Shown: positions 812-52,475, counted from the first letter of the stretch. The stretch: DNA of 64,000 nucleotides from Mobula hypostoma (GCF_963921235.1 NC_086097.1:4464001-4528000), one strand, 5' to 3'. The notes: generated by a model not told the origin, from the letters alone. Numbers and translations are program-made.

Positions 812-813
812 TA

Positions 814-1904: not shown

Positions 1905-2049
1905 CTTTGATAATTTTACAGGCTGTTCAGATATTCCAGAAAAGTTTGCATAGTTAGTAAATGCATCTTCGATACCCATGGAGCTCAGTAGGGGTTTGAG
2001 TTTGTAAGCTGTCTTCAACGTCATCTTTGGGAAATGCACATCTACAGAT
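1905..2049 (-). CDS. SERPINA1-like: Serpin copy 1, third coding exon (145 nt); last exon lies outside the window
   Basis: Hand translation SVDVHFPKMTLKTAYKLKPLLSSMGIEDAFTNYANFSGISEQPVKLSK; acceptor catgacag, donor AAG|gtaaac; phase fits the previous exon. Not in the ORF track. Confidence 0.92.
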
Positions 2050-2240
2050 CTGTCATGAACATAACACCAGAAGGGTATTGTATCATCTCACGTTTTCTCA
2101 CATCTTAGTTTTTTAAACTTTAACTGATAAATAAATTAAACTAACACAAAGGAAATCTAAAAATTAGTGCAACACACACAAAATGCTGAAGGAAAACAAC
2201 AGATCAGGCAGCATCCATGGATTCAAGGTTCAGGTTCAAG

Positions 2241-5200
2241 GTGGAAAGCAGCCAGTGAGTGAGTGGGCCAGTGAAGGAGTGGAGCTTTAAGGCTTTGACT
2301 CGAGAGATTCTGGCAGTTTTGGTAGTTGGTCTGTGCAATCAAGTCAATCAAGATTTGAATATATCAGCAGAAAGCCGTTGATTAGACCATCAAGATTTGA
2401 ATAGCTCAGACTCAGCAGAAAGCAACTGATTGGGCAATCGAGGTAAGGTGACCAAGCATTTTGAAAAGCTCAAACAGATTAAATAGAGGGATAGCTCAAG
2501 CAGAGTGGCCTGTGGAAAGTGTCCAGTGAGTGAATGGGCCAGTGAAGGAGTGGAGCTTTGAGGCTTTGACTCGAGAGGTTTTGACGAGAAGAGGCGGAGG
2601 ACGAGCTAGCTCGCAGTTAGTCTTTACAATGCCTCCTGAGACGGTGATGTGCCTATCATGTGAGATGTGGCAGTCTTGGGGGAACGCCCCTCTCCTGCAG
2701 AGTCACATCTGCCAGAAGTGCATACGGCTGGGTGATCTGGAAGACCGTGTAAGGAATCTGCAGCAGCAGCTGGATGACCTTCATCTCATAAGGGAGAATG
2801 AGGCAGTCATAGATGAGAACTACAGGGAGGTAGTCACACCTAGGCTGTTGGAAGCAGGTCGTTGGGTGACAATCAGAGGGGGGAAAGCGAAGATGAGCAG
2901 ACAGGTAGTGCAGAGCACCCCTGTAGCCATTCCCCTGAATAATAAGTTTATCGTCCTGGATACTGTTGGCGGGGACAACCGACCAGGTGTGAGCCACGGT
3001 GGCAGGGCCTCCAGCACTGAGTCTGACCCGGTGGTGCAGAAGCGTGGGACGGAGAAGAGGAGAGCTGTCGTCATTGGAGACTCTATAGTCAGGGGAGAAG
3101 ACAGGAGATTTTGTGGACGTGAGAAGGACACCCGCATGGTTTCTTGCCTCCCGGGTGCCAGGGTTCAGGATGTCTCTGACCGGGTGCACAACATCCTGGT
3201 ACGAGAGGGAAAGCAACCAGAAGTCGTGATACATGTTGGCACCAACGACATAGGCAGGAAGAAGGATGAGATCCTGAAGTGTGAGTTTCAGGAATTAGGC
3301 AGAAGGCTGAAGAACAGGACCTCAAGGGTGACGTTCTCAGGATTGCTGCCAGTGCTACGTGACAGTGATGGTAAGAATTGGAGGGGATAGCAGTTGAATT
3401 TGTGGCTGAGGAGTTGGTGCAGGGAGCAGGGTTTTAGATTTTTGGATCATTGGGACCTCTTCTGGGGAAGGTGGGACCTGTACAGATTGGATGGCTTGCA
3501 CCTGAACTCGAGGGGGAGCAATATCCTTGCAGGTAGGTTTGCTAGCATGGTTCGGGAGGGTTTAAACTAATTTGCAAGGGGGATGGGACCCAGAGCGATA
3601 GAGCAGTGAAAGAAGTGCATGGAGTAAAGCCAGATCTAACATACAGAGAGGCTTTGAGGAAAGAGAAGCAGAATAAACGGTGTAAAGACAGTAAGGTAGA
3701 AGGGCTGAAATGTGTGTACCTCAATGCAAGAAGCATCAGGAACAAAGGTGATGAACTGAGAGCTTGGATACATACATGGAATTATGAAGTAGTGGCCATT
3801 ACAGAGACTTGGCTGGCACCAGGGCAGGAATGGATTCTCAATATTCCTGGATTTCAGTGCTTTAAAAGGGATAGAGAGGGGGGGAAGGGGAGGAGGGGTG
3901 GCATTACTGGTCAGGGATACTATTACAGCTACAGAAAGGGTGGGGAATGTAGCAGGATCCTCTTTTGAGTCAGAATGGGTGGAAGTCAGGAACAGGAAGG
4001 GAGCAGTTACTTTATTGGGGTTATTCTAGAGGCCCCCGGTAACAGCAGAGATACAGAGGAGCAGATTGGGAGGCAGATTTTGGAAAGGTGCAAAAATAAC
4101 AGGGTTGTTATCATGGGTGACTTTAACTTCCCTAATATTGATTGGCACCTGATTAGTTCCAAGGGTTTAGATGGGGCAGAGTTTGTTAAGTGTGTCCAGG
4201 ATGGATTTCTGTCACAGTATGTGCACAGGCCGACTAGGGGGAATGCCATACTAGATCTAGTACTAGGTAATGAACCGGGTCAGGTCACAGATCTCTCAGT
4301 GGGTGAGCATCTGGGGAACATTGAGCACTGCTCCCTGGCCTTTAGCATTATCATGGAAAAGGATAGAATCAGAGAGGACAGGAAAATTTTTAATTGGGGA
4401 AGGGCAAATTATGAGGCTATAAGGCTAGAACTTGTGGGTGTGAATTGGGATGATGTTTTTGCAGGGAATTGTACTATGGACATGTAGTCGATGTTTAGAG
4501 TTCTCTTGCAGGATGTTAGGGATAAATTTGTCCCAGTGAGAAAGATAAAGAATGGAAGGGTGAAGGAACCATGGGTGACAAGTGAGGTGGAAAATCTAGT
4601 CAGGCGGAAGAAGGCAGCATACATGAGGTTTAGGAAGCAAAGATCAGATGGGTCTATTGAGGAATATAGGGAAGCAAGAAAAGAGCTTAAGAAGTGGCTG
4701 AGAAGAGCAGGAAGCGGGCATGAGAAGGCCTTGGTGAGTAGGATAAAGGGAAACCCCAAGACATTCTTCAATTATGTGAAGAAAAAAGGATGACAGGAGT
4801 GAAGGTAGGACCGATTAGAGATAAAGGTGGGAAGATGTGCCTGGAGGCTGTGGAAGTGAGCGAGGTCCTCAATGAATACTTCTCTTCGGTATTCACCAAT
4901 GAGAGGGAACTTGATGATGGTGAGGACAAAATGAGTGAGGTTGATGTTCTGGAGCATGTTGATATTAAGGGAGAGGAGGTGTTGGAGTTGTTAGAATACA
5001 TTAGGACGGGTAAGTCCCCGGGGCCTGATGGAATATTCCCCAGGCTGCTCCACGAGGCAAGGGAAGAGATTGCTGAGCATCTGGTTAGGATCTTTATGTC
5101 CTCGTTGTCCACGGGAATGGTACCGGAGGATTGGAGGGAGGTGAATGTTGTCCCCTTGTTGAAAAAAGGTAGTAGGGATAGTCCGGGTAATTACAGACCA

Positions 5201-6562
5201 GTGAGCCTTATGTCAGTGCTGGGAAAGCTGTTGGAAAAGATTCTTGAAGGTAGGATCTATAGGCATTTAGAGAATCATGGTCTGATCAGGGACAGTCAGC
5301 ATGGCTTTGTGAAGGGCAGATCGTGTCTAACAAGCCTGATAGAGTTCTTTGAAGGGGTAACCAGGCATATAGATGAGGGTAGTGCAGTGGATGTGATCTA
5401 TATAGATTTTAGTAAGGCATTTGACAAGGTTCCACACGGTAGGCTTATTCAGAAAGTCAGAAGGCATGGGATCCAGGGAAGTTTGGCCAGGTGGATTCAG
5501 AATTGGCTTGCCTGAAGAAGGCAGAGGGTGGTGGTGGAGGGAGTACATTCAGATTGGAGGATTGTGACTAGTGGTGTCCCACAAGGATCTGTTCTGGGAC
5601 CTCTACTTTTCATGACTTTTATTAACGACCTGGATGTGGGGGTAGAAGGGTGGGTTGGCAAGTTTGCAGACGACACAAAGGTTGGTGGTGTTGTAGATAG
5701 TGTAGAGGATTGTCGAAGATTGCAGGGAGACATTAATAGGATGCAGAAGTGGGCTGAGAAGTGGCAGATGGAGTTCAACCCAGAGAAGTGTGAGGTGGTA
5801 CACTTTGGAAGGACAAACTCTAAGGCAGAGTACAAAGTAAATGGCAGGATACTTGGTAGTGTGGAGGAGCAGAGGGATCTTGGGGTACATGTCCACAGAT
5901 CCCTGAAAGTTGCCTCACAGGTGGATAGGTTAGTTAAGAAAGTTTATGGGGTGTTAGCTTTCATAAGTCGTGGGATAGATTTTAAGAGTTACGATGTAAT
6001 GATGCCGCTCTATAAAACTCTGTTTAGGCCACACTTGGAGTACTGTGTCCAGTTCTGGTCGCCTCACTATAGGAAGGATGTGGAAGCATTGGAAAGGGTA
6101 CAGAGGAGATTTACCAGGATGCTGCCTGGTTTAGAGAGTATGCATTATGATCAGAGATTAAGGGAGCTAGGGCTTTGCTCTTTGGAGAGAAGGAGGATGA
6201 GAGGAGACATGATAGAGGTGTACAAGATAATAAGAGGAATAGATAGAGTGGATAGCCAGCGCCTCTTCCCCAGGGCACCACTGCTCAATACAAGAGGACA
6301 TGGTTTTAAGGTAAGGGGTGGGAAGTTCAAGGGGGACATTAGAGGAAGGTTTTTTACTCAGAGTGGTTGGTGCGTGGAATGCACTGCCTGAGTCAGTGGT
6401 GGAGGCAGATACACTAGCGAAGTTTGAGAGACTACTAGACAGGTATATGGAGGAATTTAAGGTGGGGGCTGATATGGGAGGGAGGGTTTGAGGGTCAGCA
6501 CAACATCGTGGGCCGAAGTCCCTGTACTGTGCTGTACTATTCTGTGTTCTATGTTCTATGTT
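2241..6562 (+). mobile_element. Near full-length CR1 LINE, disrupted, specific to unit A
   Basis: ORF1 2530-3390 (CxxC...CxxC, coiled coil, GDSIVR/PGA/HVGTND); ORF2 pieces 3606-6391 with ITETW, MGDFN, SPGPDG, DFSKAFD, PQGS, FADD; (TTCTATG)n tail; absent at 35000-35020 in unit B. Confidence 0.93.
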
Positions 6563-6689
6563 CAATGTTCAAGATTGCTTTATATAATTTCCAGTACACA
6601 AGTCCAAAGGAGAAAGAAGTAATTGCAGCTCCGGGTCTGATGCAGCTGCAAAAGAACACATTAAGACAAACACAATAACTGGAAAAGAT

Positions 6690-9590
6690 AGAGGAGGTAA
6701 AAGGGGGTGGGGTGCGGGATGCGGGGAGCAGCACTACTAATCAGGGACAATATCACAGCTGTACTCAGGGTAGACAATGGAGGGGTCAGATGTCAGATGC
6801 TGAGTCATTTGGATAGAACTCAGGAATAGGAAGGGTGCAATCACACTGATGGGATTGTACCACTGACCCCTAATAGCCAACGGGACATTGAGGAACAGAT
6901 ATGTAGTCAGATTAAGGAAATGTGTAAAAATATTAGGGTCGTTGTCATGGGGGATTTTAAACTCCCTAATATAAAATGGGAGCTTCTTAGTGTAAAGGGT
7001 TTAGATGGGGCAGAATTTGTTAAGTGTATCCAGGAAGGTTTCTGAAATCAATATATGGACAGTCCAACGTGAGGAGCGGCCGTACTGGACCTGGTGTTGG
7101 GTAATGGGCCTGACCAGAGGTGACTGACCTTTCAATGGGTGAACAGTTAGGCAACGGTGACCTCAACTCCTTGAATTTCAGGATAGCGATAGATAAGAAC
7201 AGGTATGGTCTTTGTGGGAGAGCTTTAAATTGGAATAGGGCAAATTAAGAGGATGTTAAGCAGGAACTAAGAAGCGTTATTTGGGAACATCTTTTCTCTG
7301 GAAAGTCCACATCAGACATGTGGAGTGTGTTTAAAGATGAATTGTGCAGAGTGCAGGAAAGATATGTTCCTGTTAGAAGGAAGGACAGGGTTGGAAAGAT
7401 AAGAGAACCTTGGATGTCAAGAACTGTGATGAATTTAGTCAGGAAGAAAAAGAAAAAGTATGTAAAACTTCAAAAGTTAAGATCAAATGAAGCACATGAG
7501 GAGTACAAAGAAGCCAAAAAAGAACTTGAGATGGGAATTAGGAAAGCCAGGAGAGGCCATGAAAAGTCCTTGGCAAGTAGGATTAAGGTGAATCCAAAGG
7601 AATTCTGTACTTACATCAAGAGCAAAAGGATAATGAGGGAGAGAGTGGGATCACTCAACGATAAAGAGGTGAACATTTGCAGAGATGCAGAGAATCTGAG
7701 TGAGGTACTTAGTGAGTACTTTGCTTCAATATTTATCAAGGAAAAAGGATTTGGAAGATCAGGGGATCAGTACTGCATGTATATTTACATTATATTTACA
7801 TGTATATTTACAGAGTTCAAGGAGAAGGAAGTGTTGGGCCTTCTGATGAGAATTAAGGTGGATAAGTCCCCAGGACCTGATGGGATTGAAGGATGCAAGA
7901 GACGAGATTGCTGGGCCCTTGACGGATATCTTCATGTCCTCTCTGGCCACAGGCAAGGTCCCAGAGGACTGGCGAGTGGCTAATGTTGTGCCTTTATTTA
8001 AGAAGAGGCAAGGGAAAATCCTGTGAACTACAGACCAGTGAGTCTCATGTCAGTTGTCAGGAAATTGCTGGAGAAAATTCTTAGGGATAGGATATATGAG
8101 CATTTGGCCTAATTAGGGAGAGTCAAGTGGCTTTGTATGGGGCAGGTCGTGCCTTACCAACTTGATTGAGTTTTTTGACAAGGTGACGAGAGAGATTGTT
8201 GAGGGAGGGCAGTGTCTACATGGATTTTAGGAAGACATTTGACAAAGTCACTCATATAAGACTAATCCAGAAGATTAAAATGCATGGTGATTTGGCTGTT
8301 TTTATTCAAAACTGGCTTGCTCATAGAAGACACAGGGTAATGGTTGAAGGGACTTATTCCATAAGACCATGAGACCATAAGACACAGGAGCAGAGATTCG
8401 AGCTGGAGGTCTGTAATTAGCGGCGTTCCACAGGGATCTGTGCTGGGACCTCTGCTGCTGTGATGTTTATAAATGACCTGGATGAAACTGTAGGTGGGTG
8501 GTTTAGTAAGTTTTCAGATGTACCAAGATTGGTGGAGTTGTCGATGGTGTAGAAGACTGGAGCATTGGAGGTTGAGAGGAGACCTGACTGAGGTTTACAA
8601 GATTATGAAAGGCATAGATCCTGAAGGCATAGAGGGACTATCTGTTTACCAGGGTTGAAATGTCTCATGCCAGAGGGCATGCATTGAAGGTGAGAGGGGG
8701 TAGGTTCAAGGGGGCTGTGAGGTGTAAGTTTTATACCTAGAGAGTCATAGGAGCCTGGAATGCGCTGCCTGGTATGGTGGTAGAGGCAAATACATCAGAG
8801 GCTATTAAGAGATGTATGGATAGGCACATGGATGTAAGGAAGATGGAGGGATATGGACATGGTGTAGGTAGGAGGGATTCGTGTTTGGTTGTTTTTGATT
8901 TGCATTTTAGCTGGTTTGGCACAACACTGTGGGCCGAATGGTCTCTTCGTGTGCTGTCTATGCTCCATCATGACTTGTGTCACTGGTAATAAATCTGACT
9001 CTGAAGAAGGCATTTGGCTTGTTTGTCTTCATTAGTCCTTGAGTTCAAAAGTTAGGAGGTTATGTTGCAACTTTATAAAACTCTGGTTAGGCCACATCTG
9101 GAGTATTGCATACAGTGCTGGTCACCTCATTATAGGAAGGATGTTGAGGTTTTGGAGAGAGTGCAGCCGAAGTTTACCAGGATGCTGCCAGGATTAGAGA
9201 GCATGTGCTATAATGAGACGTTGGATGTACTTGGTTTTCTTTTCTGTGGAGCAGTGAAGGCTGAGATGAGATGTGATAGCAACGAATGGCCTGTTCCTGT
9301 GCTGCACTGTTGAATGTCCTATTTTCTATGTTGCCCCTTTGGAGTAGAGATAAGGAGGAACTTTGTTAGTAAGAGGGTGGTAAATCACTGCCAGGGATGA
9401 CTGTGGGGATCAAGTCATTGAGTATATTTAAAGTGGAGGTTGATAGGTTCTTGATTAGTCAGGGCATCAAAAGTTACAGGGTGAAAGCAAGAGAATGGGG
9501 TTGAGAGGAATAATAAATCAACCATAATGGATTGGTGGGGCAGATATGATGGGCTGAATGGCCTAATTTTGCTCCTGCGTCTGATGGTCT
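6690..9590 (+). mobile_element. Old degenerate CR1 fragments predating the duplication
   Basis: APE/RT remnants (MGDF, SPGPDG, RPHLEYC); shared with 35160-36037 plus 41958-44400. Confidence 0.8.
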
Positions 9591-9670
9591 TTCCATCATG
9601 GTAATTTTTTTAGTTCACTTGTACAACTAGAAAATAATAATAACATTAAACTTGTTTTAATTGAACTTAC

Positions 9671-9941
9671 TGCTTTTGCATTGACAACGAGAGATGATCA
9701 AATCTTTGAACGGTCAGTTTCCGCTCCAGCTCTGCCAATTTTCCAGATTTCGGTAGCAAAATCAATAGGGAGGTATTTCCTGCATATTCCATCAGAAGCG
9801 CATCACTGGAGAGGTCCTCGGCATATGTCCAGTAATACATTCCTGTCCTTCTCATCATGTGAACTCTCACTGTTGTTCTGTCGTCGACATGAAAATCAGC
9901 TTCATAAGTGTGCTTAGTGTCAAAAGGCTGCAACCATTCAC
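9671..9941 (-). CDS. SERPINA1-like: Serpin copy 1, second coding exon (271 nt)
   Basis: tttctccag|GT GAA TGG completes FKG-EW; motifs PFD, FHVD, VRVHMM, LILLP; donor CA|gtaagt (phase 2). Confidence 0.93.
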
Positions 9942-12900
9942 CTGGAGAAATCAAAGAGATAAGCGTACTCAGGTAATTTGAAGACCCTGACCTGGAGTTA
10001 CACTCTGACTTCGGTTCTTTGCAGGAATGGGACCTGCTCATGCGGCCTCATAACTGTCGGCTTTTCGATATGCCAAGGACATGGCCTGGAAGACTAACGT
10101 GCCTCCGGGGTGCCGGATTTTTGTGGCTCTGGAGACGGGCTGATTCAAGGCCAGTGCTGCCACCGATGACGACTGATGTGTCACAGGAGAATGAGGAAGA
10201 TCGGAAGCAGCAGGCTGGCTGCTGGCTGTGTGCCCAGAGGCACAGAGCTCGGAAAAAGCGATGCAACAGACTTTTAACACCGTAGATCAACGAGTTGTTC
10301 TGCTACGTCTCCCCTCTCGCTGTGAAACGGGGACACCTCTTTTTCCCTCATTAGAGAAAGAGAGCCTGTGGTATGTCGAATACCGGGTGAGCGAGTAGTC
10401 TTTGGGCAAGTCTGTGTCTTTACTGATGCTTTGCTGCATGCTTGAGTGGGGCGCCACCGATTAAGGGGAATGTGAAGGGAAACTCCTTCACTCAGAGGGT
10501 GGTGAGGGTGTGGAAGTAGCTGCCAGTGCAAGTGCTACATGCAAGGTACTTGGATGGGAGGGGTACAGAGGGCTCTGGTCACGTGCAGCTCGATGGAAGG
10601 AGGTGGTTTACATGGTTAGGCTCAGATCAGATGAGCCAGATGAGACAAATGGCTTATCTCTGCTGTGCTTTTCTATGGCTTCTTATACCTTGCCTACTGT
10701 CTCAAGGCTGGGTGTGTCTGCCCCTGTACCAAGCCCACCCCCACCCATGACACTCCTTCTGTGCCATCGGTCCCACACTCCTTCTGCTGCCCTCCACCCT
10801 CCCCATTCCCAACATCCTTTCCTCCCGCCAGATTTACAAACTTGTTCTCCACTGCACGTTAACAAATACAGAACTGTGCAAAGGTCTTAGGTACACGAGC
10901 TATATGTATGTGCCTGAGACTGTCACACAGAACCGTAGCTGGACACAACATCATTGCCAAATGGCCTTTTCTCTGCTGTAACGTTTTCTGTTCAAACCAA
11001 TTTCCTGGCCATGATTTTATTCCTTTCTTGATGTTAACCAACAGACTGTAATCGGAAACACAAGAGGTTCTTTAGTTTCTGGAAATCCAGAGCAACACAC
11101 AAAAAAATGCTTGAGGAACTCAGCAAGTCAGGCAGCATCTGTGGAGGAGAATGACCAGTTGACATTTTGGGCCAAGCCCCTTCTTCAGGCTGATAAAGGA
11201 AGGAGAGGGGGTTGGAGAAAGAAGTTTGAGCTGGCAGATGATAGGTGAAACCATGTGAAGATGAAGGTGATTAAGTGGGACATGGGAGATGAGGTGAGAA
11301 GCTGGGAGGTGATGGGTGGAAGAGGTAAAGGGTTAAGAAGAAGGAGTCGGATAGTAGAGGAGAGTGTACCATGGGAGAAAGGGGAAACAGAGTGAGGTGA
11401 TGGAGAAGAAAATGGGTAAGAAGTGAGACAAAATGGGGAATAGCAGAAGAGAGAAGAGGGAGGTGGGAGAAATGACCAGAACTTGAGGTTGATGTTCAGA
11501 TTAATCTTGTCTTTTCTCTATGTTCAGTACGCAGAGCAACACACTTATAATGATATTGATGCTGCCAGTGGGAAATAAGCAACGTGCTAACTAGAATGCT
11601 AAAAGTGATCAGTGTGGGTACAGAATGTAAACCACAGGTACAGAACAGTTTCTCTACCTCTACTGAATTACAAATACTGCTAACATCCACTGAGGAATGG
11701 AATTGCTCTTTGCAGAAATTATAAAAGGAAATGGAGCCAATAACTTATTTTGTTGTTAGTCGCCCTTATTGAATCAATTGCTAGTTAGACACACGTCTCA
11801 AAGTAATTCATTGGGTTTGATGATTTTTGTGTCATATTGAGAACTTGTAGGTAGTGCAAGTTCTTTCCTTGAATACTCCCGTCTCTACCAATGACTCAAT
11901 CAGTGCGCCATGTCTGATCATGAGTCTTCTTAACAATGAAACTATAATTTGAATGAACAAGCGCCAAAAAGGAAAAGGAAAACAAACAAGAGAAACAGAC
12001 CATAAGATATAGGAGCAGAAGAAGGCTATTTGGCCCATTGAGTCTATTCTACCATTTCATCATGTTTGATCTATTTCCCTCTCAGCCCCAATCTCCTGCC
12101 TTCCCTCCTGTAACCCTTTATGCCATAACCAATCAAGAGTCTATCAATCTCTGCCTTAAATATACCTCATGACATAGTTTGAAATATGACCCAAAGATAG
12201 TTTGATGTAAGAGAGTTTCGAGCGGATCAAAGTAAAACTCATATCGGAGGAGAGATGGACAGAGATGTTTATGTTTGACTTTATTTATTTGGCGATACAG
12301 GGCAGAGTGGGCCCTTCTGGCCCTTCGAGCCACACCATCCCAGCAACCCCCACCACCCACAAACCCAATTAATCCTAACCTAATCACCAGTCAATTTACA
12401 ATCACCTATTAACCTATCCGGGACGACTTTGGAAACTGGAGCACCCAGAGGAAACCCACGCGTTCCATAGGAATGATGTACAGAGGCTCCTTACAGAACA
12501 GAATTCCAAACTCTGGAATGTCACACTAGCCGCTACCCTACTGTGGTGCCCCTGTGTGTGAGAGATGCACAGGATCAAGGATCAAGGATCAAGGAGAGGT
12601 GTACAAGATGGAGAACAGAGAGAGATCTGCAACTCCAGTGCATAACTTTAAAAATATGTGGAACTTCCTGGTGGTCAAACTTTTTAATTTCTCCTTTCCT
12701 CTTCCAATATGTTGGTCCATGGCTTCCTCTTGTGCCATGATAAGGCCATCCTCAGTGTGGAGGACTAACACCTTGTATTCCATCTGGGTGACCTCCAACC
12801 TGATGGAAGGAATATCAATTTCTTTTTACAGTTTAAAAAAAACGTTTACCTCCTCCTCCCCTTTACTATTCCCCTCCCTGTCCTCTTACCTGTTCTCACC

Positions 12901-14705: not shown

Positions 14706-15142
14706 GTTGAACCTGCAAAGTAAAACACAAACCTACAATGTATTTATGTGCACTATTTAGAGATACAGCGCAGAACAGGTTCTTCCAGTCTAATACGCCA
14801 CAATACCCAGAAACTCACCTATTTAACCCTAGTCAATTCACAGGACAACTGACAATGACCATTTAGCCGACTAACCTGTACATGTTTGGACCGTGGGAAG
14901 AAACTCGAACAGCTGGGGGAAAGCCATGCGCTCATGGGCAGGAAATACAAAGAATTGAACTCAGAACTCCAGACCCCCCTGAGCAGTAATAGCAACACAC
15001 TACCTACTATATTACTGGGTTCTGAGTTTGCTCAAAACCTTCCTTTTAGATACTCCACAAAGCTTATATTGAAACTCTATTACATTTCACAAGTTAACAA
15101 GATCAGATATTGCTCCTTAGGTTCTAACACAAGTTCACTTAC

Positions 15143-26705: not shown

Positions 26706-26733
26706 ATAAGGAAATGTCTCATTGCTATAGAAA

Positions 26734-41789: not shown

Positions 41790-41957
41790 CCAATTGTCAG
41801 AGAATTCAGTTTAATTCAAAGTATTGTAAAAATTGATGCCTTAATAGTTAATTAAAGTATAGCTGACCATAGAGAGAAAAAACTCAGAGGTAATGGAGCG
41901 AGTCAAGAACGCGACTTCACTCCATGAGCGCTACCGGAAGTCTCCTAAGGTGAATCC

Positions 41958-44400
41958 AAAGGAATTCTGTACTTACATCAAGAGTAAAAGGATAATGAGG
42001 GAGAGGGTGGGATCACTCAACGATAAAGAGGTGAACATTTGCTGAGATGCTGAGAATGTGAGTGAGGTACTTCGTGAGTACTTTGCTTCAACATTTATCA
42101 AGGAAAAAGGATTTGGAGGACCAGGAGATCAGTGCTGCATGTATATTTACATTAGGGTGTTCAGAGTTCAAGGAGAAGGAAGTGTTGGGCCTTCTGATGA
42201 GAATTAAGGTGGATAAGCCTCCAGGACCTGATGGGATTGAAGGATGCAAGAGACGAGATTGCTGGGCCCTTAACTGGTATCTTCATGTCCTCTCTGGCCA
42301 CAGGCAAGGTCACACAGGACTGGCGAGTGGCTAATGTTGTACCTTTATTTAAGAAGGTGGCAAGGGAAAATCCTGGGAACCACAGACCAGTGAGTCTCAT
42401 GTCAGTTGCCAGGAAATTGCTGGAGAAAATTCTTAGGGATAGGATATATGAGCATTTGGCCTAATTAGGGAGAGTCAAATGGCTTTGTATGGGGCAGGTT
42501 GTGGCCTTACCAACTTGATTAAGATTTTTGACACGGTTACGAGAGAGATTGTTGAGGGAGGGCAGTGTCTACATGGATTTTAGTAAGGCATTTGACAAAG
42601 TCACTCATAAGGCTAATCCAGAAGATTAAAATGTATGGTGATTTGGCTGTTTAGATTCAGAACTAGCTTGCTCATAGAAGACGCAGGGTAATGGTTGAAG
42701 GGACTTATTCCATAAGACCATGAGACCATTAGACACAGGAGCAGAGATTCAAGCTGGAGGTCTGTAATTAGTGGCGTTCCACAGGGATCTGTGCTGGGAC
42801 CTCTGCTGTTGTGATGTATATAAATGACCTGGATGAGACTGTTGGTGGGTGGTTTAGTAAGTTTTCAGATGATACCAAGATTGGTGGAGTCATCATGGTG
42901 TAGAAGACTGGCAAAGCGTACAGCTGATATAGATCATTTGCAGATATAGGCAGAGAAATAGCAGATGGAGTTTAATCCAGATAAATGTGAGGTGTTGCAG
43001 GTTGGCAGGAGAAATGCAAGGAGACAGTACACTGTTGAGGGCAAGGTCCTTAACTGTGTTGCTGAGCAGAGAGATCTTGGGATCCAAGTTCATAGCTCCT
43101 TGAAAGTGGCTACACAGGTCAATAAGGTGATTACGAAGGAATATTTGCTTTTAATAGTCAAATAAATGAGTTCAAAAGGCAAGAGATTATTTACAAATTT
43201 ATAAAACCCTGATTAGGCTTTGTCTGGAGTATTGTGTACAGTTCTGGTCACCCCACCATAGGAAGGATGTTAAAGATTTGGAGAGGGTGCAGAAGAGGTT
43301 TACCTGTATGTTGCCTGGTTCAGAGGGCATATGCTATCATGAGAGACGGGATAAACTTGGGTTGTGTTCTCTGGAGAATTGGAGGTTGAGAGGAGACCTG
43401 ACTGAGATTTACAAGATTATGAAAGGCATAGATCCTAAAGGCATAGAGGGAGTAACTGTTTCCCAGGGTTGAAATGTCTAATGCCAGAGGGCATGCATCG
43501 AAGGTGAGAGGGGGTAGGTTCAAGGGGGCTGTGAGGTGTAAGTTTTATACCTAGAAGTCATGGGTGCCTGGAATGCACTGCCTGGTATGGTGGTAGAGGC
43601 AAATACATCAGAGGTTATTAAGAGATGTTTGGAAAGGCACATGGATGTAAGGAAGATGGAGGGATATGGACATGGTGTGGGTAGGAGGGATTAGTGTTTG
43701 GTTGTTTTTGATTTGCATTTTAGCTGGTTTGGCACAACACTGTGGGCCGATTGGCCTCTTCCTGTGTTGTCTATGCTCCATCATGACTTGTGTCACTGGT
43801 AATAAATCTGACTCTGAAGAAGGCATTTGGCTTGTTTGTCTTCATTAGTCCTTGAGTTCAAAAGTTAGGAGGTTATGTTGCAACTTTATAAAACTCTGGT
43901 TAGGCCACATCTGGAGTATTGCATACAGTGCTGGTCACCTCATTATAGGAAGGATGTTGAGGCTTTGGAGAGAGTACAGCAGAAGTTTACCAGGATGCTG
44001 CCAGGATTAGAGAGCATGTGCTATAATGAGACGTTGGATGTACTTGGTTTTCTTTTCTGTGGAGCAGTGAAGGCTGAGATGAGATGTGATAGCGACGAAT
44101 GGCCTGTTCCTGCGCTGTACTGTTGAATGTCCTATTTTCTATGTTGCCCCTTTGGAGTAGAGATAAGGAGGAACTTTGTGAGTAAGAGTGTGGTGAATCA
44201 CTGCCAGGGATGACTGTGGGGGTCAAGTCATTGAGTATATTTAAAGTGGAGGTTGATAGGTTCTTGATTAGTCAGGGCATCAAAGGCTACAGGGTGAAAA
44301 CAGGAGAATGGGGTTGAGAAGGATAATAAATCAGCCATAATGGATTAGTGGGGCAGATATGATGGGCTGAATGGCCTAATTGTGCTCCTGTGTCTGATGG
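41958..44400 (+). mobile_element. Old degenerate CR1 (unit B copy; its 5' part is 35160-36037, split off by the L1)
   Basis: Paralogous to 7596-9590; RT remnants MEFNPDKCEV, RPHLEYC. Confidence 0.8.
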
Positions 44401-44483
44401 TCTTTCCATCATGTTAATTTTTTTAGTTCACTTGTATAGCTAGAAAATAATAATAACATTAAATTTGATTTTATTGAACTTAC

Positions 44484-44754
44484 CGGTTTTCCATTGACGA
44501 CAAGAGATGATCAAATCTTTGAACGGTCAGTTTCCGCTCCAACTCTGCCAATTTTCCAGATTTCGGTAGCAAAATCAATAGGGAGGCATTTCCTGCATAT
44601 TCCATCAGAAGCACTTCACTGGAGAGGTCCTCGGCATATGTCCAGTAATACATTCCTGTCCTTCTCATCATGCGAACTCTCTCTGTTGTTCTGTCGTCGA
44701 CATGAAAATCAGCTTCATAAGTGTGCTTAGTGTCAAAAGGCTGCAACCATTCAC
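44484..44754 (-). CDS. SERPINA1-like: Serpin copy 2, second coding exon (271 nt)
   Basis: GEWLQPFD...LILLP...SMEN; acceptor tttctccag, donor CG|gtaagt. Confidence 0.92.
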
Positions 44755-45805
44755 CTGGAGAAATCAAAGAGATAAGCGTACTCAGGTAATTTGAAGACCC
44801 TGACCTGGAGTTACACTCTGACTTCGGTTCTTTGCAGGAATGGGACCTGCTCATGCGGCCTCATAACTGTCCGCTTTTCGATATGCCAAGGGCATGGCCT
44901 GGAAGACTAACGTGCCTCCAGGGTGCCGGATTTTTGTGGCTCTGGAGACGGGCTGATTCAAGGCCGGTGCTGCCACCGATGACGACTGATGTGTCACGGG
45001 AGAACAAGGAAGATCGGAAGCAGCAGGCTGGCTGCTGGCTGTGTTCCCAGAGGCACAGAGCTTGGAAAAAGCGATGCAACAGACTTTTAACACCGTAGAT
45101 CAACGAGTTGTTCTGCTACGTCTCCCCTCTCGCTGTGAAACGGGGACACCTCTTTTTCCCTCATTAGAGAAAGAGAGCCTGTGGTATGTCGAATACCGGG
45201 TGAGCGAGTAGTCTTTGGGCAATTCTGAGTCTTTACTGATGCTTTGCTGCATGCTTGAGTGGGGCGCCACCGATTAAGGGGAATGTGAAGGGAAACTCCT
45301 TCACTCAGAGGGTGGTGAGGGTGTGGAAGTAGCTGCCAGTGCAAGTGCTACATACAAGGTACTTGGATGGGAGGGGTACAGAGGGCTCTGGTCACGTGCA
45401 GCTCGATGGAAGGAGGTGGTTTACATGGTTAGGCTCAGATCAGATGAGTCAGATGAGACAAATGGCTTATCTCTGCTGTGCTTTTCTATGGCTTCTTATA
45501 CCTTGCCTACTGTCTCAAGGCTGGGTGTGTCTGCCCCTGTACCAAGCCCACCCCCACCCATGACACTCCTTCTGTGCCATCGGTCCCACACTCCTTCTGT
45601 CGCCCTCCACCCTCCCCATTCCCAACATCCTTTCCTCCCGCCAGATTTACAAACTCGTTCTCCACTGCACGTTAACAAATACAGAACTGTGCAAAGGTCT
45701 TAGGTACACGAGCTATATGTATGTGCCCCAATCTCCTGCCTTCCCTCCTGTAACCCTTCATGTCATAACCAATCAAGAATCTATCAATCTTTGCCTTAAA
45801 TATAC

Positions 45806-48800
45806 ATAGAACATAGAACAGTATAGCACATTACAGGCCCTTCGGCCCACAATGTTGTGCCGACCCTCAAACCCTGCCTCCCATATAACCCCCCACCTTA
45901 GATTCCTCCATATACCTGTCTAGTAGTCTCTTAAACTTCACGAGTGTATCTGCCTCCACCACTGACTCAGGCAGTGCATTCCATGCACCAACCACTCTCT
46001 GAGTAAAAAACCTTCCTCTGATATCCCCCTTGAACTTCCCACCCCCTACCTTAAAGCCATGTCCTCTTGTATTGATCAGTGGTGTCCTGGGGAAGAGGTG
46101 ATGGCTATCCACTCTATGTATTCTTCTTATTATCTTGTACACCTCTATCATGTCTCCTCTCATTCTCCTTCTCTCCAAAGAGTAAAGCCCTAGCTCCCTT
46201 AATCTCTGATCATAATGCATACCCTCTAAACCAGGCAGCATCCTGGTAAATCTCCTCTGTACCCTTTCCAATGTTTCCACATCCCTCCTATAGTGAGGTG
46301 ACCAGAACTGGACACAGTACTCCAAGTGTGGCCTAACCAGAGTTTTATAGAGCTGCATCATTACATCGCGACTCTTAAACTCTATCCCTCGACTTATGAA
46401 AGCTAACACCCCATAAGCTTTCTTAACTACCATATCTACCTGTGAGGCAACTTTCAGGGATCTGTGGACATGTACCCCGTGATCCCTCTGCTCCTCCACA
46501 CTACCAAGTATCCTGCCATTTACTTTGTACTCTGCCTTGGAGTTTGTCCTTCCAAAGTGTAGCACCTCACACTTCTCTGGGTTGAACTCCATCTGCCACT
46601 TCTCAGCCCACTTCTGTATCCTATCAATGTCTCTCTGCAATCTTTGACAATCCTCTACACTATCTACAACACCACCAATCTTTGTGTCGTCTGCAAACTT
46701 GCAACCCACCCTTCTACCCCGACATCCAGGTCGTTAATAAAAATCACGAAAAGTAGAGGTCCCAGAACAGATCCTTGTGGGACACCACTAGTCACAATCC
46801 TCCAATCTGAATGTACTCCCTCCACCACCACCCTCTGCCTTCTGCAGGCAAGCCAATTCTGAATCCACCCAGCCAAGCTTCCCTGGATCCCATGCCTTCT
46901 GACTTTCAGAATAAGCCTACAATAGAACCATAGAACCATAGAAACTACATCACAGAAACAGGCCCTTTGGCCCTTCTTGGCTGTGCCGAACCATTTTCTG
47001 CCTAGTCCCACTGACCTGCACACGGACCTAGTCCCACTGACCTGCACACGGACCATATCCCTCCATACACCTCCCATCCATGTGTCTGTCCAATTTATTC
47101 TTAAATGTTAAAAAAGAACCCGCATTTACCACCTCATCTGGCAGCTCATTCCATACTCCCACCACTCTCTGTGTGAAGAAGCCCCCCACTAATGTTCCCT
47201 TTAAACTTTCCCCCCCTCACCCTTAACCCATGTCCTCTGGTTTTTTTCTCCCCTTGCCTCAGTGGAAAAAGCCTGCTTGCATTCACTCTATCTATACCCA
47301 TCATAATTTTATATACCTCTATCAAATCTCCCCTCATTCTTCTACGCTCCAGGGAATAAAGTCCGAACCTATTCAACCTTTCTCTGTAACTGAGTTTCTC
47401 AAGTCCCGGCAACATCCTTGTAAACCTTCTCTGCACTCTTTCAACCTTATTTATATCTTTCCTGTAATTTGGTGACCAAAACTGAACACAATACTCCAGA
47501 TTCGGCCTCACCAATGCCTTATACAACCTCATCATAACATTCCAGCTCTTATACTCAATACTTTGATTATTAAAGGCCAATGTACCAAAAGCTCTCTTTA
47601 CGACCCTATCTACCTGTGATGCCACTTTTAGGGAATTTTGTATCTGTATTACCATTAACCCTGTATGTTCTACGTTGGTTTGTCCTTCCAACGTGCAATA
47701 CCTCACACTTGTCAGTATTAAACTCCATCTGCCATTTTTCAGCCCATTTTTCCAGCTGGTCCAAGTCCCTCTGCAGGCTCTGAAAACCTTCCTCACTGTC
47801 TACTACACCTCCAATCTTTGTATCATCAGCAAACTTGCTGATCCAATTTACCACATTATCATCCAGATCATTGATATAGATGACAAATAACAATGGACCC
47901 AGCACTGATCCCTGTGGCACACCACTAGTCACAGGCCTCCACTCGGAGAAGCAATTCTCTACTACCACTCTTTGGCTTCTTCCATTGAGCCAATGTCTAA
48001 TCCTATTTACCACCTCTCCATGTATACCTAGCGACTGAATTTTCCTAACTAACCTCCCATGCGGGACCTTGTCAAAGGGCTTACTGAAGTCCATGTAGAC
48101 AATATCCACTGCCTTCCCTTCATCCACTTTCCTGGCAACCTCCTTGAAAAACTCCAATAGATTGGTCAAACATGACCTACCACGCACAAAGCCATGTTGA
48201 CTCTTCCTAATAAGTCCCTGTCTATCCAAATGCTTGTAGGTTCTGTCTCTTAGTACTCCCTCCAATAATTTACCTACTACCGACGTTAAACTTACTGGCC
48301 TATAATTTCCCGGATTACTTTTCGATCCTTTTTTAAACAACAGAACAACATGAGCCACTCTCCAATTCTCCGGCACCTCACCTATAGACAGCGACATTTT
48401 AAATATTTCTGCCAGGGCCCCTGCAATTTCAACACTAGTCTCCTTCAAGGTTCGAGGGAACACCCTGTCAGGTCCCGGGGATTTATCCACTTTAATTTTC
48501 CTCAAGACAGCAAGGACCTCCTCCTTTTCGATCTGTACAGTTTCCATGATCTCACTACTTGTTTCCCTTAATTCCACAGACTTCATGCCAATTTCCTTAG
48601 TAAATACAGACGCAAAAAACCTATTTAAGATCTCCCCCACTTCCTTTGGTTCCGCACATACCCCGACCACTCTGATCTTCAAGAGGGCCAATTTTATCCC
48701 TTACAATCCTTTTGCTCTTAATATACCTGTAAAAGCTCTTTGGATTATCCTTCACTTTGACTGCCAAGGCAACCTCATGTCTTCTTTTAGCCCTCCTGAT

Positions 48801-49943
48801 GTCTTTCTTAAGTATTTTCTTGCTCTTCTTGTACTCCTCAAGCACCTTATTTACTCCCTGCTTCCTATACATGTCATACAACTCCCTCTTCTTCTTTATC
48901 AGAGTTGCAATATCCCTTGAGAACCAAGGTTCCTTATTCCTATTCACCTTGCCTTTAATCCTGACAGGAACATACAAATTCTGCACTCTCAAAATTTCTG
49001 CCTTGAAGGCTTCCCACCTACCGATCACATCCATGCCAGAGAACAACCTGTCCCAATCCACGCTTTTTAGATCTTTCCTCATTTCTTCAGATTTGCCCTT
49101 CCCCAATTAAAAATTTTCCCCAGTTAAAAATTATATCCTTTTCCATGATAATGCTAAAGGCCAGGGAGCGGTGGTCACTGTCTCCCAGATGCTCACCCAC
49201 TGAGAGATCTGTGACCTGACCCGGTTCATTACCTAGTACCAGATCTAGTATGGCATTCCCCCTAGTCGGCCTGTGCACATACTGTGATAGGAATCCGTCC
49301 TGGACACACTTAACATACTCTGCCCCATCTAAACCCTTGGAACTGACCAGGTGCCAATCAATATTAGGGAAGTTAAAGTCACCCATGATAACAACTGTTA
49401 TTTTTGCACCTTTCCAAAATCTGCCTCCCAATCTGCTCCTCTGTATCTCTACTGCCACCTGGGGGCCTACAGAATCCCCCCAATAGAGTAACTGCTCCCC
49501 TCCTGTTCCTGACTTCCACCCATACTGACTCAAAAGAGGATCCTGCTACATTACCCACCCTTTCTGTAGCTGTAATAGTATCCCTGACCAGTAATGCCAC
49601 CCCTCCTCCCCTCCCCCCCTCTCTATCCCTTTTAAAGCACTGAAATCCAGGAATATTGAGAATCCATTCCTGCCCTGGTGCCAGCCAAGTCTCTGTAATG
49701 GCCACTACATCATAATTCCATATATGTATCCAAGCTCTCTGTTCATCACCTTTGTTCCTGAAGCTTCTTGCATCGAGGTACACACACTTCAGCCCTTCTG
49801 CCTTACTATCTTTACACCGTTTATTCTGCTTCTCTTTCCTCAAAGCCTCTCTATATGTTAGATCTGGCTTTACTCCATGCACTTCTTTCACTGCTCTATC
49901 GCTCTGGGTATCATCCCCCTTGCAAATTAGCTTAATTTAGTTT
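45806..49943 (-). mobile_element. Composite CR1 insertion (family 1 with a family 2 element inside), specific to unit B
   Basis: 45806-46920 and 49091-49930 match the 2241-6562 family; 46921-49090 is a different CR1 with its own (GTTCTATG)n tail; empty site near 12165 in unit A. Confidence 0.88.
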
Positions 49944-51856
49944 AATACCCTATGACATAGTTTGAAATACACCCCAAAGATAATTCGATGTAAGAGAGTT
50001 TAGAGCACTTCAAAGTAAAACTCTATCGGAGGAGAGATGGACAGAGATGTTCATGTTTGACTTTATTTATTTGGCGATACAGGGCAGAGTGGGCCCATCT
50101 GGCCCTTCGAGCCACACCGTCCCAGCAACCCCCACCAACCACAAACCCAATTAACCCTAACCTAATCACCAGCCAATTTACAATCACCTATTAACCTATC
50201 CGGGACGACTTTGGAAACTGGAGCATCCAGAGGAAACCCACGCGTTCCATAGGAATGATGTACAGAGGCTCCTTACAGAACAGAATTCCAAACTCTGGAA
50301 TGTCACATTAACTGCTACCCTACTGTGGTGCCCCTATGTGTGAGAGATGCACAGGATCAAGAAGAGGTGTACAAGATGGAGAACAGAGAGGGATCTGCAA
50401 CTCCAGTGCATAACTTTAAAAATAACTTAAAAAAACAATGTGGAACTTCCTGGTGGTCAAACTTTTCAATTTCTCCTTTCCTCTTCCAACATGTTGGTCC
50501 ATGGCTTCCTCTTGTGCCATGATAAGGACATCCTCAGTGTGGAGGACTAACATCTTGTATTCCATCTGGGTGGCCTCCAACTTGATGGTAGGAATATCGA
50601 TTTCTCCTTCCGGTAAAAAATTACCTCCTCCTCCCCTTTACTATTCCCCTCCCTGTCCTCTTACCTCTTCTCACCTGACTGTCACCCCCCCCCCAATGCG
50701 TCACCTCTTCATTCCTTTTCTCTCATGGTCCACCGTCCTCTCCTATCAGATTCCTTCTTCTCCAGCCCTTTACCTTTCCTATTCACCTGGCTTCACCTAT
50801 CACCTTAGCTATCGTCCTTCCCCATTTTTTATACAAGCATCTTCTTTCCTTTCCAGTCATGAAGAAGCTCTCAGCCCTAAGTGTTGACTGTTTATTCATT
50901 TCCATAGATGCTGCCTGACCTGCTGAGTTCCTCCAGTATTTAGTATGTGTTGCTCTGGTTTTCCAGCATCTGCAGTATCTCATAATTATTAAAAATAAAA
51001 TATAACCAAACAAATATTGCATTCTTTGGATCAATATTTCAAATACCTAAAATAAAATAAATATATTGTCTTGAAAATTGATTACTGTTCAATTCACTTT
51101 AAGTTCCCTGAGAAATTTTTTTTTATAAATAGAATACAGTTCTAAGTTTTCTGGTTAACTAACAACAATCTTGCATAGAGCCACACAAATTAACAATGCA
51201 TTCAGAAATGTTTGAATTACAGGTAATTCTGACATCATCAATTTGGGGACATCAGTGTAAAAAATGGGAATTCATGCACTGATGTATAAACTTTTAAATG
51301 GTTAGATTTTCAAATTCTTGCATTGCATAACATGGGTGGTGGGGTGGAGAGACATCTCTACCAAAGGAAGTGTAAGGCCCTCCTTCCTTTCACGAGCTTG
51401 CAGCTCACCCTAGGCAAGGTGCAGCACCTACTTAGACTCCCCCCGCACCCCCCATCCCATCAGGATGAAGCCACGGGAGCAGGTAGTGGGTGGTCGTATG
51501 AGCAGCTGGTGCATATCACAAGTCCTGGATATGCAACCACTGCACTAGGCAGATAATCTCTGAAGAGTATTGATAATGACTGGGCTCACCCATCTTGTAA
51601 AGACACTGCCCAGAAGAAAGCAATAGCAAATCACTTCTGTCAAAAAATTTGCCAAGAACAATCATTATCATGGAAAGACAATGATCACTCATGTCATACA
51701 ACAGGGTGCATAACGAACAAACAATTGCAAAACACCCCTACCCTCACAGAGCATATAAAGATGTTTAGAAATTGTCCTACTCAATATACAGAAGTTGAAG
51801 CATCAACTGATTCAGTCATTAAATGATGTGTGTTTAACATCCAAATGACATCTTAC

Positions 51857-52475
51857 CTTTGAACAAGATATGGCTGAGAAGAAACATCAGAGAATCCGGT
51901 AAGAAGGGCTCTTTAAAGAAGTTTGGGTTTTTGACGTGGGTTATGTCACTCACATAAGCATTTATTATGTCTTTTGTACTTTGTTGTTCACGAGAATCAA
52001 TCCTCTCTATGGTGGCATTATAATATTCCTCGGCTTCTCTGAGGAACCTTTCATGAATTTCTTTTGTGTTTTGAACATACAGAGAGATTCTAATGTGGAT
52101 TCCATCACTCACATTGTTCAAATGCTTCAGAAGCTGGCGGAATGTCTCCCTCACGGCGACAGTACCATTGTTTGTCATGTTGCTGTATCCAAGAACCTGC
52201 AGGAGCTGAGCCCGAGTATTTTCCTTGGCACCCAATGACAACATGCTCAGGGAGGCAGAGATGCTCAGCGGAGAAAGGAAAATATTTTGGGAAGCTGTGT
52301 CTGGTTGAGCGGCAATCTTTTTGTACAGACGCAATGCAAATTCTGAATTTGCTGCTGAGAGGCTGAGGAGGGAAGGGTGTGGGGTAGATTCATTGACAGC
52401 AGAGGGATATCCACTGACCATGCCACTGGAAGGTAAAGTGACCATCAGGAAAGCAAAAGCAAGCAACTTCTCCAT
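51857..52475 (-). CDS. SERPINA1-like: Serpin copy 2, first main coding exon
   Basis: Gap-free paralog of 14087-14705 with identical splice sites and an open frame. Confidence 0.92.

Follow-up and report, generated by a model that had tools for sequence, protein, structure and literature searches.

Two serpin genes in one stretch of the Mobula hypostoma genome were predicted to be young paralogs whose exons diverge faster than their introns. This raises the question of whether the encoded proteins have been diversified by positive selection and, if so, in which part of the serpin fold. The sequence analysed, hereafter called the window, is 64,000 nucleotides long (GCF_963921235.1, NC_086097.1:4464001-4528000).

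Gene anatomy, family and transcripts

The window is part of a tandem array of clade A serpins in Mobula hypostoma. Two of the genes, copy A (NCBI protein P0001) and copy B (P0006), are contained in collinear duplicated units. The features are as follows.

382..22624, no strand: duplicated unit with copy A, collinear with 33312-58168
33312..58168, no strand: duplicated unit with copy B, collinear with 382-22624
1905..2049, minus strand: copy A exon 4, 145 nt
9671..9941, minus strand: copy A exon 3, 271 nt
14087..14705, minus strand: copy A exon 2, first coding exon, from ATG to donor, 619 nt, ending in phase 1
28072..28260, minus strand: copy B exon 5, 62 codons and stop, with the reactive centre loop
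34689..34833, minus strand: copy B exon 4, 145 nt, 12 differences from copy A
44484..44754, minus strand: copy B exon 3, 271 nt, 11 differences from copy A
51857..52475, minus strand: copy B exon 2, 619 nt, 56 differences from copy A
61895..62083, minus strand: last exon of gene C, a third and more distant serpin whose upstream exons lie past the window end

The duplicated units align in self-BLAST blocks at 90.9-96.9% identity. Mobile elements have inserted independently, in different introns, in A and B, which shows that the two units were not wholly homogenised afterwards. Reading frames are open in both copies and all AG acceptors and GT donors are in place, as predicted; in copy B, frame, splice sites and stop are intact across 407 codons. 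The translation of copy A exon 2 is 100% identical to P0001, and that of copy B exon 5 is the C-terminus of P0006. The last exon of copy A, which carries the reactive loop, lies before the window start: a motif search of the window found no serpin C-terminal motif below position 1905, and exon 5 and the loop of this copy were read from the database protein.

Both proteins match the Serpin domain (Pfam PF00079) over profile positions 2-370 of 370, with 394 bits for A and 356 bits for B against a cut-off of 27, which places them in the superfamily. The closest natural relatives with a solved structure in a PDB search are alpha-1-antitrypsin chains (E about 1e-74), while a stricter search matched engineered conserpins only. 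A structure model (pTM 0.79), used for its secondary structure, has a serpin-like order of helices and strands. Three introns (phases 1, 2 and 0, equivalent to classes a, b and c) interrupt the coding sequence after nucleotides 619, 890 and 1035. Applying the 14-15 residue offset given by the alpha-1-antitrypsin match ranges puts them at about positions 192, 282 and 331. This corresponds to group V2, for which the available text of one paper gives coding introns 192a, 282b and 331c and an intron in the 5' untranslated region (PMC4476131). Copies A and B are alpha-1-antitrypsin-like serpins of clade A and intron group V2, and are predicted to be secreted.

Three contig sets presumed to be RNA (X10, X11 and X19) were compared with positions 9600-29599. 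Mobile-element contigs dominated the matches listed; among the others, record 8 of X11 and record 1 of X10 span copy A exon 2 without a difference and run on into exon 3, which is itself matched by spliced presumed-RNA contigs with 0 differences. The X11 record continues for 79 letters beyond the 5' end of exon 2, consistent with a 5' exon, and 146 letters separate its exon-5-like piece from its exon-3 piece. Going by these two presumed-RNA sets, copy A is transcribed and correctly spliced. Assembly error at copy A was rejected, since the contigs match it exactly.

Other matches were recorded in passing. One X19 contig differs from the 3' untranslated region of copy B at 1 of 164 positions, and another lies over copy A exon 2 with 30 differences in 626; the two may stem from either orthologs or paralogs. 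A word share of 0.35 for the relative, organism B, against 0.66 for organism A suggests a divergence of roughly 2%, as rough arithmetic only.

Coding and non-coding divergence between copies A and B

The three shared coding exons align without indels and differ at 79 of 1035 nucleotides (56/619, 11/271 and 12/145). The resulting 61 amino-acid differences in 345 codons leave only eight codons with purely synonymous change. These counts reproduce exactly those of the original prediction. By codon position the differences number 33, 32 and 14, and nine codons carry more than one.

The predicted excess over introns holds, at a smaller size than was claimed. Both intron samples behind that claim came from the least diverged non-coding parts: 9 differences in 300 positions at 9961-10260 were found again, and 1741-1900 has one mismatch and one gap column in 160. 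Over all alignable duplicated non-coding DNA, 547 of 12131 sites differ (4.5%; 3.0% to 8.6% in single blocks). Exons at 7.6% thus stand against non-coding DNA at 4.5%, and a contrast of 8% with 1-3% was too wide. The exons exceed the pooled non-coding DNA (Fisher p=1.6e-5), and only 0.18% of non-coding windows of 1035 columns hold 79 or more differences. Non-coding divergence is strongly over-dispersed (index 3.8, p=2e-11), which makes Fisher p-values against pooled introns too optimistic. Per 400 columns it varies between about 1% and 10%, the longest identity run measuring 274 bp, and a non-coding repeat zone at about 590-1200 has diverged as much as exon 2; one A/B identity run, 189 bp long, reaches across the beginning of exon 3. 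Taken singly and compared with its own 1-kb flanks, exon 2 alone stands out (p=1e-4), its flanks having an ordinary divergence of 4.7%, while exons 3 and 4 give p=0.17 and p=0.12.

Substitution counts point the same way. NG86 gave Sd=11 for S=229 and Nd=68 for N=806, hence dS 0.0496, dN 0.0895 and omega 1.80 (Fisher p=0.041). Pairwise maximum likelihood under three codon-frequency models gave omega 2.62-2.70 (LRT 9.3-10.0, p=0.0016-0.0023). Across methods dS lies between 0.037 (ML) and 0.050 (NG86), close to the non-coding divergence of 0.0465, and dN (0.09-0.10) is about twice that neutral level. Set against non-coding DNA, Nd is in excess (p=2.3e-6) and Sd is not (p=0.75). A neutral simulation, run at the CpG and transition/transversion rates of the duplicated non-coding DNA, predicted 19 synonymous-only codons where 8 were observed (P=0.002) and 27 third-position changes where there are 14 (P=0.0003-0.0013). 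Pure CpG or transition bias, both modelled in this simulation, was rejected as the cause.

The differences are also clustered. Nine fall within 18 nt at codons 154-159, and neighbouring differences lie no more than 3 nt apart in 41% of cases in exons, compared with 24% in non-coding DNA. Omega can be inflated by multi-nucleotide events and by patches of conversion. An omega of 1.9-2.0 persists when either this densest 6-codon patch or all nine multi-hit codons are removed. The simple counting test is marginal (p=0.04-0.06). Within this one pairwise comparison, with only 11 synonymous changes, dN/dS is significantly above 1 and dN exceeds the non-coding yardstick, which is the pattern of positive selection.

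Location of the changes and history of the array

The amino-acid changes are far from evenly spread. The densest segment, hereafter the hot zone, comprises helix E, strand 1A, helix F and the loop from helix F to strand 3A.

14121..14279, minus strand: hot zone in copy A exon 2, codons 143-195
51891..52049, minus strand: hot zone in copy B exon 2, codons 143-195

Here 23 of 53 residues differ, compared with 38 of 292 elsewhere (Fisher p=1.3e-6), with an Sd of only 4, so that 23 of the 61 changes lie within residues 143-195. This helix E/strand 1A/helix F/loop face covers the lower half of sheet A. The reactive loop is just as variable: A and B differ at 10 of the 21 positions from P17 to P4' and at 20 of the 62 residues of exon 5, so the usual loop hypervariability is present. 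There are two equally dense hot spots, the reactive loop and the helix F face, in place of the predicted spread over the serpin body away from the loop.

In the hinge of inhibitory serpins P17 is Glu, P15 is Gly and P14 is Thr or Ser, with small residues from P12 to P9; an exposed loop with the P1-P1' bond follows. By sequence only, the hinge residues of both copies are compatible with this consensus: E-E-G-T-K-A-T-A-V-T with Leu-Ser at P1-P1' in A, and E-K-G-T-N-S-T-A-V-T with Met-Ser in B. Copy B, however, has an N-S-T sequon at hinge positions P13-P11, and Ser and His in place of a conserved Asn and Tyr of strand 3A (Asn201Ser, Tyr202His). Over 106 columns conserved in 28 non-Mobula homologs, B departs at 17 and A at 3. 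Exons 2-4 hold eight N-glycosylation sequons in B and four in A, the hinge sequon of B being additional. Copy A thus appears to be the conservative member, with a canonical hinge, and the conserved-residue losses of copy B look in part like loosened constraint. Unique changes number 18 in B and 7 in A. When the 61 changes were polarised with stingray outgroups, 30 fell on the B side and 17 on the A side, with 14 unassignable; both lineages have changed. Three P1 variants occur naturally, Leu, Met and Arg.

Copies A and B are not as young as first thought. In the protein tree the Mobula paralogs form a clade of their own, separate from the stingray copies, and within it A and B are not closest relatives: P0002 of M. 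birostris is the partner of A (support 80/83), and B falls together with gene D, a third paralog, and two M. birostris proteins (98/97). Their neutral divergence is 4.5%, A has an M. birostris ortholog, and the pair are not lineage-specific duplicates. Copy B represents, together with D, a faster-evolving paralog lineage, and its terminal branch is the longest (0.13).

Relationships change along the genes. In exon 3, A differs at 10 sites from B and at 11 from its M. birostris partner; over residues 1-116, B has 2 differences from Mbir_3 and 11 from A; and D is nearest to Mbir_3 in exons 3-4, but in exon 5 and the hot zone Mbir_4 is its closest match. All Mobula paralogs except A, with A's own ortholog among them, share the patch at codons 154-159. 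Of the 61 differing sites, 36 show both states in other paralogs or species. Gene conversion among paralogs would have reshuffled variants in this way, and the history of the array appears mosaic.

Explanations and known systems

We consider it probable that the genes of this array are diversifying under positive selection. Amino-acid changes have built up roughly twice as fast as neutral change, whereas synonymous sites stayed level with introns. They are densest in the reactive centre loop, which acts as bait and determines the target protease, and on the helix E/strand 1A/helix F/loop face. After duplication, selection for different protease targets may have acted through the loop, and at the helix F face it may have altered the kinetics of loop insertion, protein stability, glycan cover or the binding of partners. 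The most likely driver would be foreign proteases that keep changing, those of parasites or pathogens, or the ray's own immune proteases, and gene conversion among paralogs may have moved segments about.

Loosened constraint combined with chance would give a different account, in which a redundant copy B, or the B/D lineage, evolves nearly neutrally and is perhaps becoming a non-inhibitory or dead gene, while omega above 1 is an artefact of a small number of synonymous sites, of mutations that hit several nucleotides at once and of mutation rates that vary locally. The departures of B from conserved columns, its long branch and surplus of unique changes, its hinge sequon and replaced strand 3A residues, the marginal counting test, the clustering of changes and the over-dispersed non-coding divergence all fit this account. 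However, one drifting copy paired with a constrained one should yield a pairwise omega below 1, and 1.8-2.7 was observed, with p=0.002 in both the likelihood-ratio test and the simulation. Non-coding rates predict about 50 exon differences, about 38 of them non-synonymous, against the 68 non-synonymous observed. The coding structure of B is intact, and the A side has changed too, at 17 sites at least. We regard this explanation as unlikely.

An age mismatch created by gene conversion seems a little less likely again. Here the array would be old and evolving in concert, and the exon excess would reflect different coalescence times, not repeated adaptive substitution: either conversion between A and B homogenised introns and silent sites while selection or chance kept the replacements, or patches of more diverged paralogs were copied into exons only. 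The segment-by-segment relationships of A, B and D with Mbir_3 and Mbir_4, the many sites with both states shared, the uneven non-coding divergence with its long identity runs (that at exon 3 included) and the distribution of the codon 154-159 patch speak for it. Yet imported or older exon sequence should raise dS as well, and dS equals intron divergence, which counts against old exons within homogenised introns; the hot zone has few synonymous differences, and the flanks of exon 2 are ordinary. B has hot-zone states of its own; a search of 5.8 billion annotated proteins, blind to unannotated genes and pseudogenes, turned up no donor, and paralog D was the best match at 74%. Moreover, holding replacement differences against homogenisation would itself require diversifying selection.

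Under the favoured reading of positive selection, the predicted new binding function or arms race in A and B is possible. PAI-1 binds vitronectin through its helix E/strand 1A/helix F/loop face. A bolder version, which we hold to be a long shot, is that in the B/D-type paralogs of devil and manta rays this face has become a new interaction surface, perhaps also shielded by added N-glycans. The serpin body, as well as the bait loop, would then stand at the front of an arms race with factors from parasites or pathogens that bind the inhibitor or disable it, and in B the sequon in the hinge and the replacements in strand 3A would mark a switch to non-inhibitory binding.

A literature search found no paper on this Mobula hypostoma serpin locus, which adds to a known kind, the diversifying clade A serpin arrays. 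Exon divergence above intron divergence is also seen in the tandem red and green opsin genes of primates, where gene conversion homogenises the introns; silent exon sites near the selected sites then retain an older divergence, whereas dS in the ray pair equals that of introns and is not older. Hill and Hastie reportedly described in Nature in 1987 that serpin reactive centres evolve fast, with replacements outrunning silent and non-coding change. Their case concerned the loop region, and the ray pair has a second hot spot outside it. In the available part of a study of SERPINB3 and SERPINB4 in great apes, selected sites comprise loop positions 351-364 and body positions 163, 166, 167 and 171 (PMC4136820). 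Those genes, as there described, are a young pair of serpin duplicates under positive selection; they differ in being intracellular clade B serpins studied by site models over nine primate species.

The closest parallels are the rodent arrays (mouse Serpina1a-e, the Serpina3 paralogs and woodrat SERPINA3), which, as far as the accessible text goes, resemble the ray array in being tandem clade A genes with a hypervariable loop, varied P1 and episodic diversifying selection. For the rodent SERPINA1 and SERPINA3 arrays, that text reports 48 and 37 selected sites, with only 8 and 9 in the loop, and urges study of the selected residues of the serpin body (PMC12646145). The ray array differs in that it is independent, belongs to an elasmobranch host and has its body changes clustered on the helix E to helix F face. 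Its evidence is an intron-calibrated pairwise comparison from sequence alone, that for rodents a site-model analysis. This calibration makes the locus a clean case of protein change faster than neutral in a cartilaginous fish, and indicates that diversification of alpha-1-antitrypsin-like arrays, most familiar from rodents, arose independently in rays. With two hot spots and Leu, Met or Arg at P1, the ray genes offer a small protein set for probing the effects of selected changes in the serpin body, a question that the recent rodent-array paper, in its accessible part, leaves open (PMC12646145).

Two intact clade A serpin genes within a broken tandem duplication

The DNA of the window is vertebrate and rich in repeats. 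Self-comparison revealed a single large tandem duplication (382-22624 versus 33312-58168; block identity 90.9-96.9%), broken up by insertions carried by one copy only. Two intact clade A serpin genes, hereafter A and B, were found together with part of a third serpin gene, C:

14087-14705, minus strand, copy A, coding exon 2
9671-9941, minus strand, copy A, coding exon 3
1905-2049, minus strand, copy A, coding exon 4 (final exon outside the window, beyond its start)
51857-52475, minus strand, copy B, coding exon 2
44484-44754, minus strand, copy B, coding exon 3
34689-34833, minus strand, copy B, coding exon 4
28072-28260, minus strand, copy B, last exon (exon 5)
61895-62083, minus strand, gene C, last exon (rest of the gene beyond the window)

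When translated, 14088-14705 (minus strand) matches NCBI protein P0001 of Mobula hypostoma (lesser devil ray) at 100% identity; P0001, encoded by A, is an alpha-1-antiproteinase-like protein of 412 aa, and B encodes P0006, an alpha-1-antitrypsin-like protein of 407 aa. Both span the whole Pfam serpin domain (394 bits for A, 356 for B), and of the natural proteins with solved structures, alpha-1-antitrypsin is the best match to them. The three coding introns (phases 1, 2 and 0) fit the 192a/282b/331c pattern by which vertebrate serpin group V2 is defined in a section of PMC4476131. Frames, AG acceptors and GT donors are intact in both copies, as originally noted. Contigs joining A exon 2 to exon 3 with 0 mismatches were present in two contig sets guessed to be RNA, which argues for transcription of A and for splicing in line with its annotation; one such contig (1601 letters) runs on into a part of exon-4 size and a part resembling exon 5. 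In the NCBI models, B starts at the exon-2 ATG, whereas A has five extra leading codons (MNLFN) in an upstream exon (14706-14711 and upstream); the spliced contig X11 record 8 extends 79 letters beyond A exon 2 on its upstream side. The last exon of gene C encodes a hinge of canonical form (E-K-G-T-E-A-S-V-V-T) and, judged from the alignment register, Met-Ser at P1-P1'; C is much more distant from A or B than these are from each other.

Several mobile elements were also detected. Intron 3 of B holds a full-length L1-like retrotransposon (36037-41946, minus strand), with an open ORF2 of 1306 aa (36395-40315, minus strand; endonuclease, reverse transcriptase and zf-RVT) and an ORF1 of 306 aa (40890-41810, minus strand; L1 RBD-like domain). 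The corresponding site in A lacks it, so it was inserted after the duplication and may still be active. Two copies of a related retroelement (~94% identity), at 2232-6555 (plus strand, A intron 3) and 45804-49935 (inverted, B intron 2), lie in different introns and opposite orientations and are independent insertions made after the duplication; they have diverged from each other about as far as the duplicated units have. Between A and B, a 382-aa open frame (25429-26577, minus strand) with a weak GIY-YIG domain match (E=1.2e-4) suggests a Penelope-like element.

Replacement change faster than neutral

Our counts of exon differences agreed to the digit with those made earlier from the sequence alone: 56/619, 11/271 and 12/145 in exons 2 to 4 (79/1035 in total), giving 61 amino-acid differences and 8 synonymous-only codons. 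Third codon positions changed least (33, 32 and 14 differences at positions 1, 2 and 3). The two earlier intron samples were recovered as well (9/300; 1 mismatch and 1 gap column in 160), and both fall in the least diverged stretches. As a neutral yardstick, all eight collinear duplication blocks were aligned, minus exons and 10 nt on each side. Non-coding divergence between A and B was 547/12131 aligned sites, or 4.51% (Jukes-Cantor 0.0465), ranging from 3.0% to 8.6% per block. Compared with this pool, divergence was higher in exons (7.6%, Fisher p=1.6e-5) and at non-synonymous sites (68/806, p=2.3e-6), and no different at synonymous sites (11/229, p=0.75), so that exon dS, set against the full intron alignment, does not match an older split. 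Non-coding divergence is over-dispersed (index of dispersion 3.8, p=2e-11, 30 windows of 400 columns), which makes these pooled p-values too optimistic, and comparison with actual non-coding windows is the fairer test. At least 79 differences occurred in 0.18% of 1035-column non-coding windows, and at least 56 in 1.3% of 619-column windows, the latter all within one repeat zone near 590-1200. This intron 4 zone is ~10% diverged between A and B, equal to exon 2, and overlaps an inverted SINE-like repeat with further copies at 26733-27215 and 33731-34356. Against its own 1-kb flanks, exon 2 was the sole exon to stand out (9.0% vs 4.7%, p=1e-4), with no significant excess for exon 3 (4.1% vs 2.8%, p=0.17) or exon 4 (8.3% vs 5.5%, p=0.12).

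For this one pair, with 11 silent changes, the Nei-Gojobori method gave dS 0.0496, dN 0.0895 and omega 1.80 (one-sided Fisher p=0.041). Pairwise Goldman-Yang maximum likelihood gave omega 2.62-2.70 and kappa ~3.6 under equal, F1x4 and F3x4 codon frequencies (likelihood ratio vs omega=1, 9.3-10.0; p ~0.002). For a neutral null, CpG, transition and transversion rates were taken from the non-coding part of the duplication and used to place 79 substitutions on one or the other coding sequence, stop codons being rejected. Synonymous-only codons (8 observed vs 19 expected, P=0.002) and third-position changes (14 vs 27, P=0.0003-0.0013) were both depleted. By an arithmetic estimate, non-coding rates predict ~50 exon differences vs the 79 observed. 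Yardstick and rate tests together show silent sites keeping to the neutral rate and replacement sites changing about twice as fast; replacement change between A and B is thus faster than neutral.

Two hot spots of change

The AlphaFold model of B (mean pLDDT 78, pTM 0.79) has the usual serpin element order. Residues 143-195, which form helix E, strand 1A, helix F and the loop to strand 3A in this model, hold 23 of the 61 differences (43% of positions vs 13% elsewhere, p=1.3e-6). Exon 5 of A, which lies off the window, was compared via the database protein: 20/62 residues differ from B, and 10/21 positions of the reactive loop (P17 to P4') differ. These counts put the hypervariability of the loop on a par with that in other clade A arrays and show a second, equally dense hot spot in the serpin body. 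The original reading, of change spread over the body and not centred on the loop, is not supported in that form: the body changes are uneven, and the loop varies as well. By alignment to an alpha-1-antitrypsin loop graft, the P1-P1' bond is Leu-Ser in A, Met-Ser in B and Arg-Ser in a third paralog, D. Exons 2-4 encode 8 N-glycosylation sequons in B vs 4 in A.

A and B would be secreted, glycosylated inhibitors that trap serine proteases via the reactive loop, and duplication may have let selection fit the loops to different targets (P1 Leu, Met or Arg). The face formed by helix F would overlie the part of sheet A that receives the inserted loop, and changes on it could affect how fast the loop inserts, the stability of the protein, its glycan cover or its binding of partners. 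In PAI-1, the helix F face binds vitronectin. In B, the conserved Asn-Tyr of strand 3A is replaced and an additional N-S-T sequon lies at the hinge (P13-P11); because of these two features, B may inhibit poorly or not at all.

A mosaic array and the causes of its divergence

In the protein tree, A groups with M. birostris P0002 (support 80/83), and B, on the longest terminal branch, with D and two M. birostris proteins (98/97). The A/B split therefore predates that of the two Mobula species, and A and B are not mutual nearest relatives, contrary to their earlier description as young paralogs. The history of the array is mosaic. For 36 of the 61 differing sites, each of the two states is also seen in other paralogs or in outgroups; of the other states, 18 are found solely in B and 7 solely in A. 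In exon 3, A differs from B at 10 sites and from its own M. birostris ortholog at 11; B differs from the M. birostris protein Mbir_3 at 2 sites in residues 1-116 and at 28 in the 143-195 hot spot. Exon 3 lies within a low-divergence domain, and a 189-bp identity run spans its start. Relationships shifting along the gene and low divergence around exon 3 point to gene conversion among array members. For the B hot spot, no donor was found among annotated proteins (best match D, 74%). Two non-coding stretches (21599-22598 and 10267-10866) show only ~1% divergence vs the 4.5% average, with a 274-bp identity run at 21636-21910, and are likely tracts of recent A-to-B conversion. At 14335, contigs of a related organism all read T (5 DNA and 1 RNA-type) vs A in the window, changing on the coding strand the Val124 codon unique to A to an Asp codon; Asp is present at 124 in every other Mobula paralog, and the contigs indicate that Val124 is a recent change of A.

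Diversifying selection is probably the main cause of the excess replacement change. Loosened constraint combined with chance and multi-nucleotide events is an unlikely explanation of it, although loosened constraint may account for part of the excess in B. At 106 columns conserved in 28 non-Mobula homologs, A deviates 3 times, B 17 and D 14, and three M. birostris proteins 8, 15 and 11 times; polarised by stingray proteins, 30 changes fall on the B side and 17 on the A side, with 14 having no assignable side. Part of the exon differences is clustered, and omega remains at 1.9-2.0 (p 0.04-0.06) without the densest 6-codon patch or without all 9 multi-hit codons. An age mismatch driven by gene conversion is a rather improbable main cause of the excess. 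The one-copy insertions show that the units did not undergo wholesale homogenisation after those insertions.

Rapid, selection-driven divergence is well known from the tandem clade A serpins of rodents. Accelerated evolution of serpin reactive centres was reportedly described by Hill and Hastie in 1987. Our literature search found no paper on selection in Mobula or elasmobranch serpins. In passages of PMC12646145 on rodent arrays, only 8 and 9 of 48 and 37 selected sites, respectively, fall within the loop, and work on selected body residues is called for; for SERPINB3/B4, part of PMC4136820 places selected sites in the loop and at 163-171. Since rodent arrays diverge likewise, the rays provide a fresh and independent instance of a serpin array of already known behaviour, in which the body hot spot is unusually sharp.
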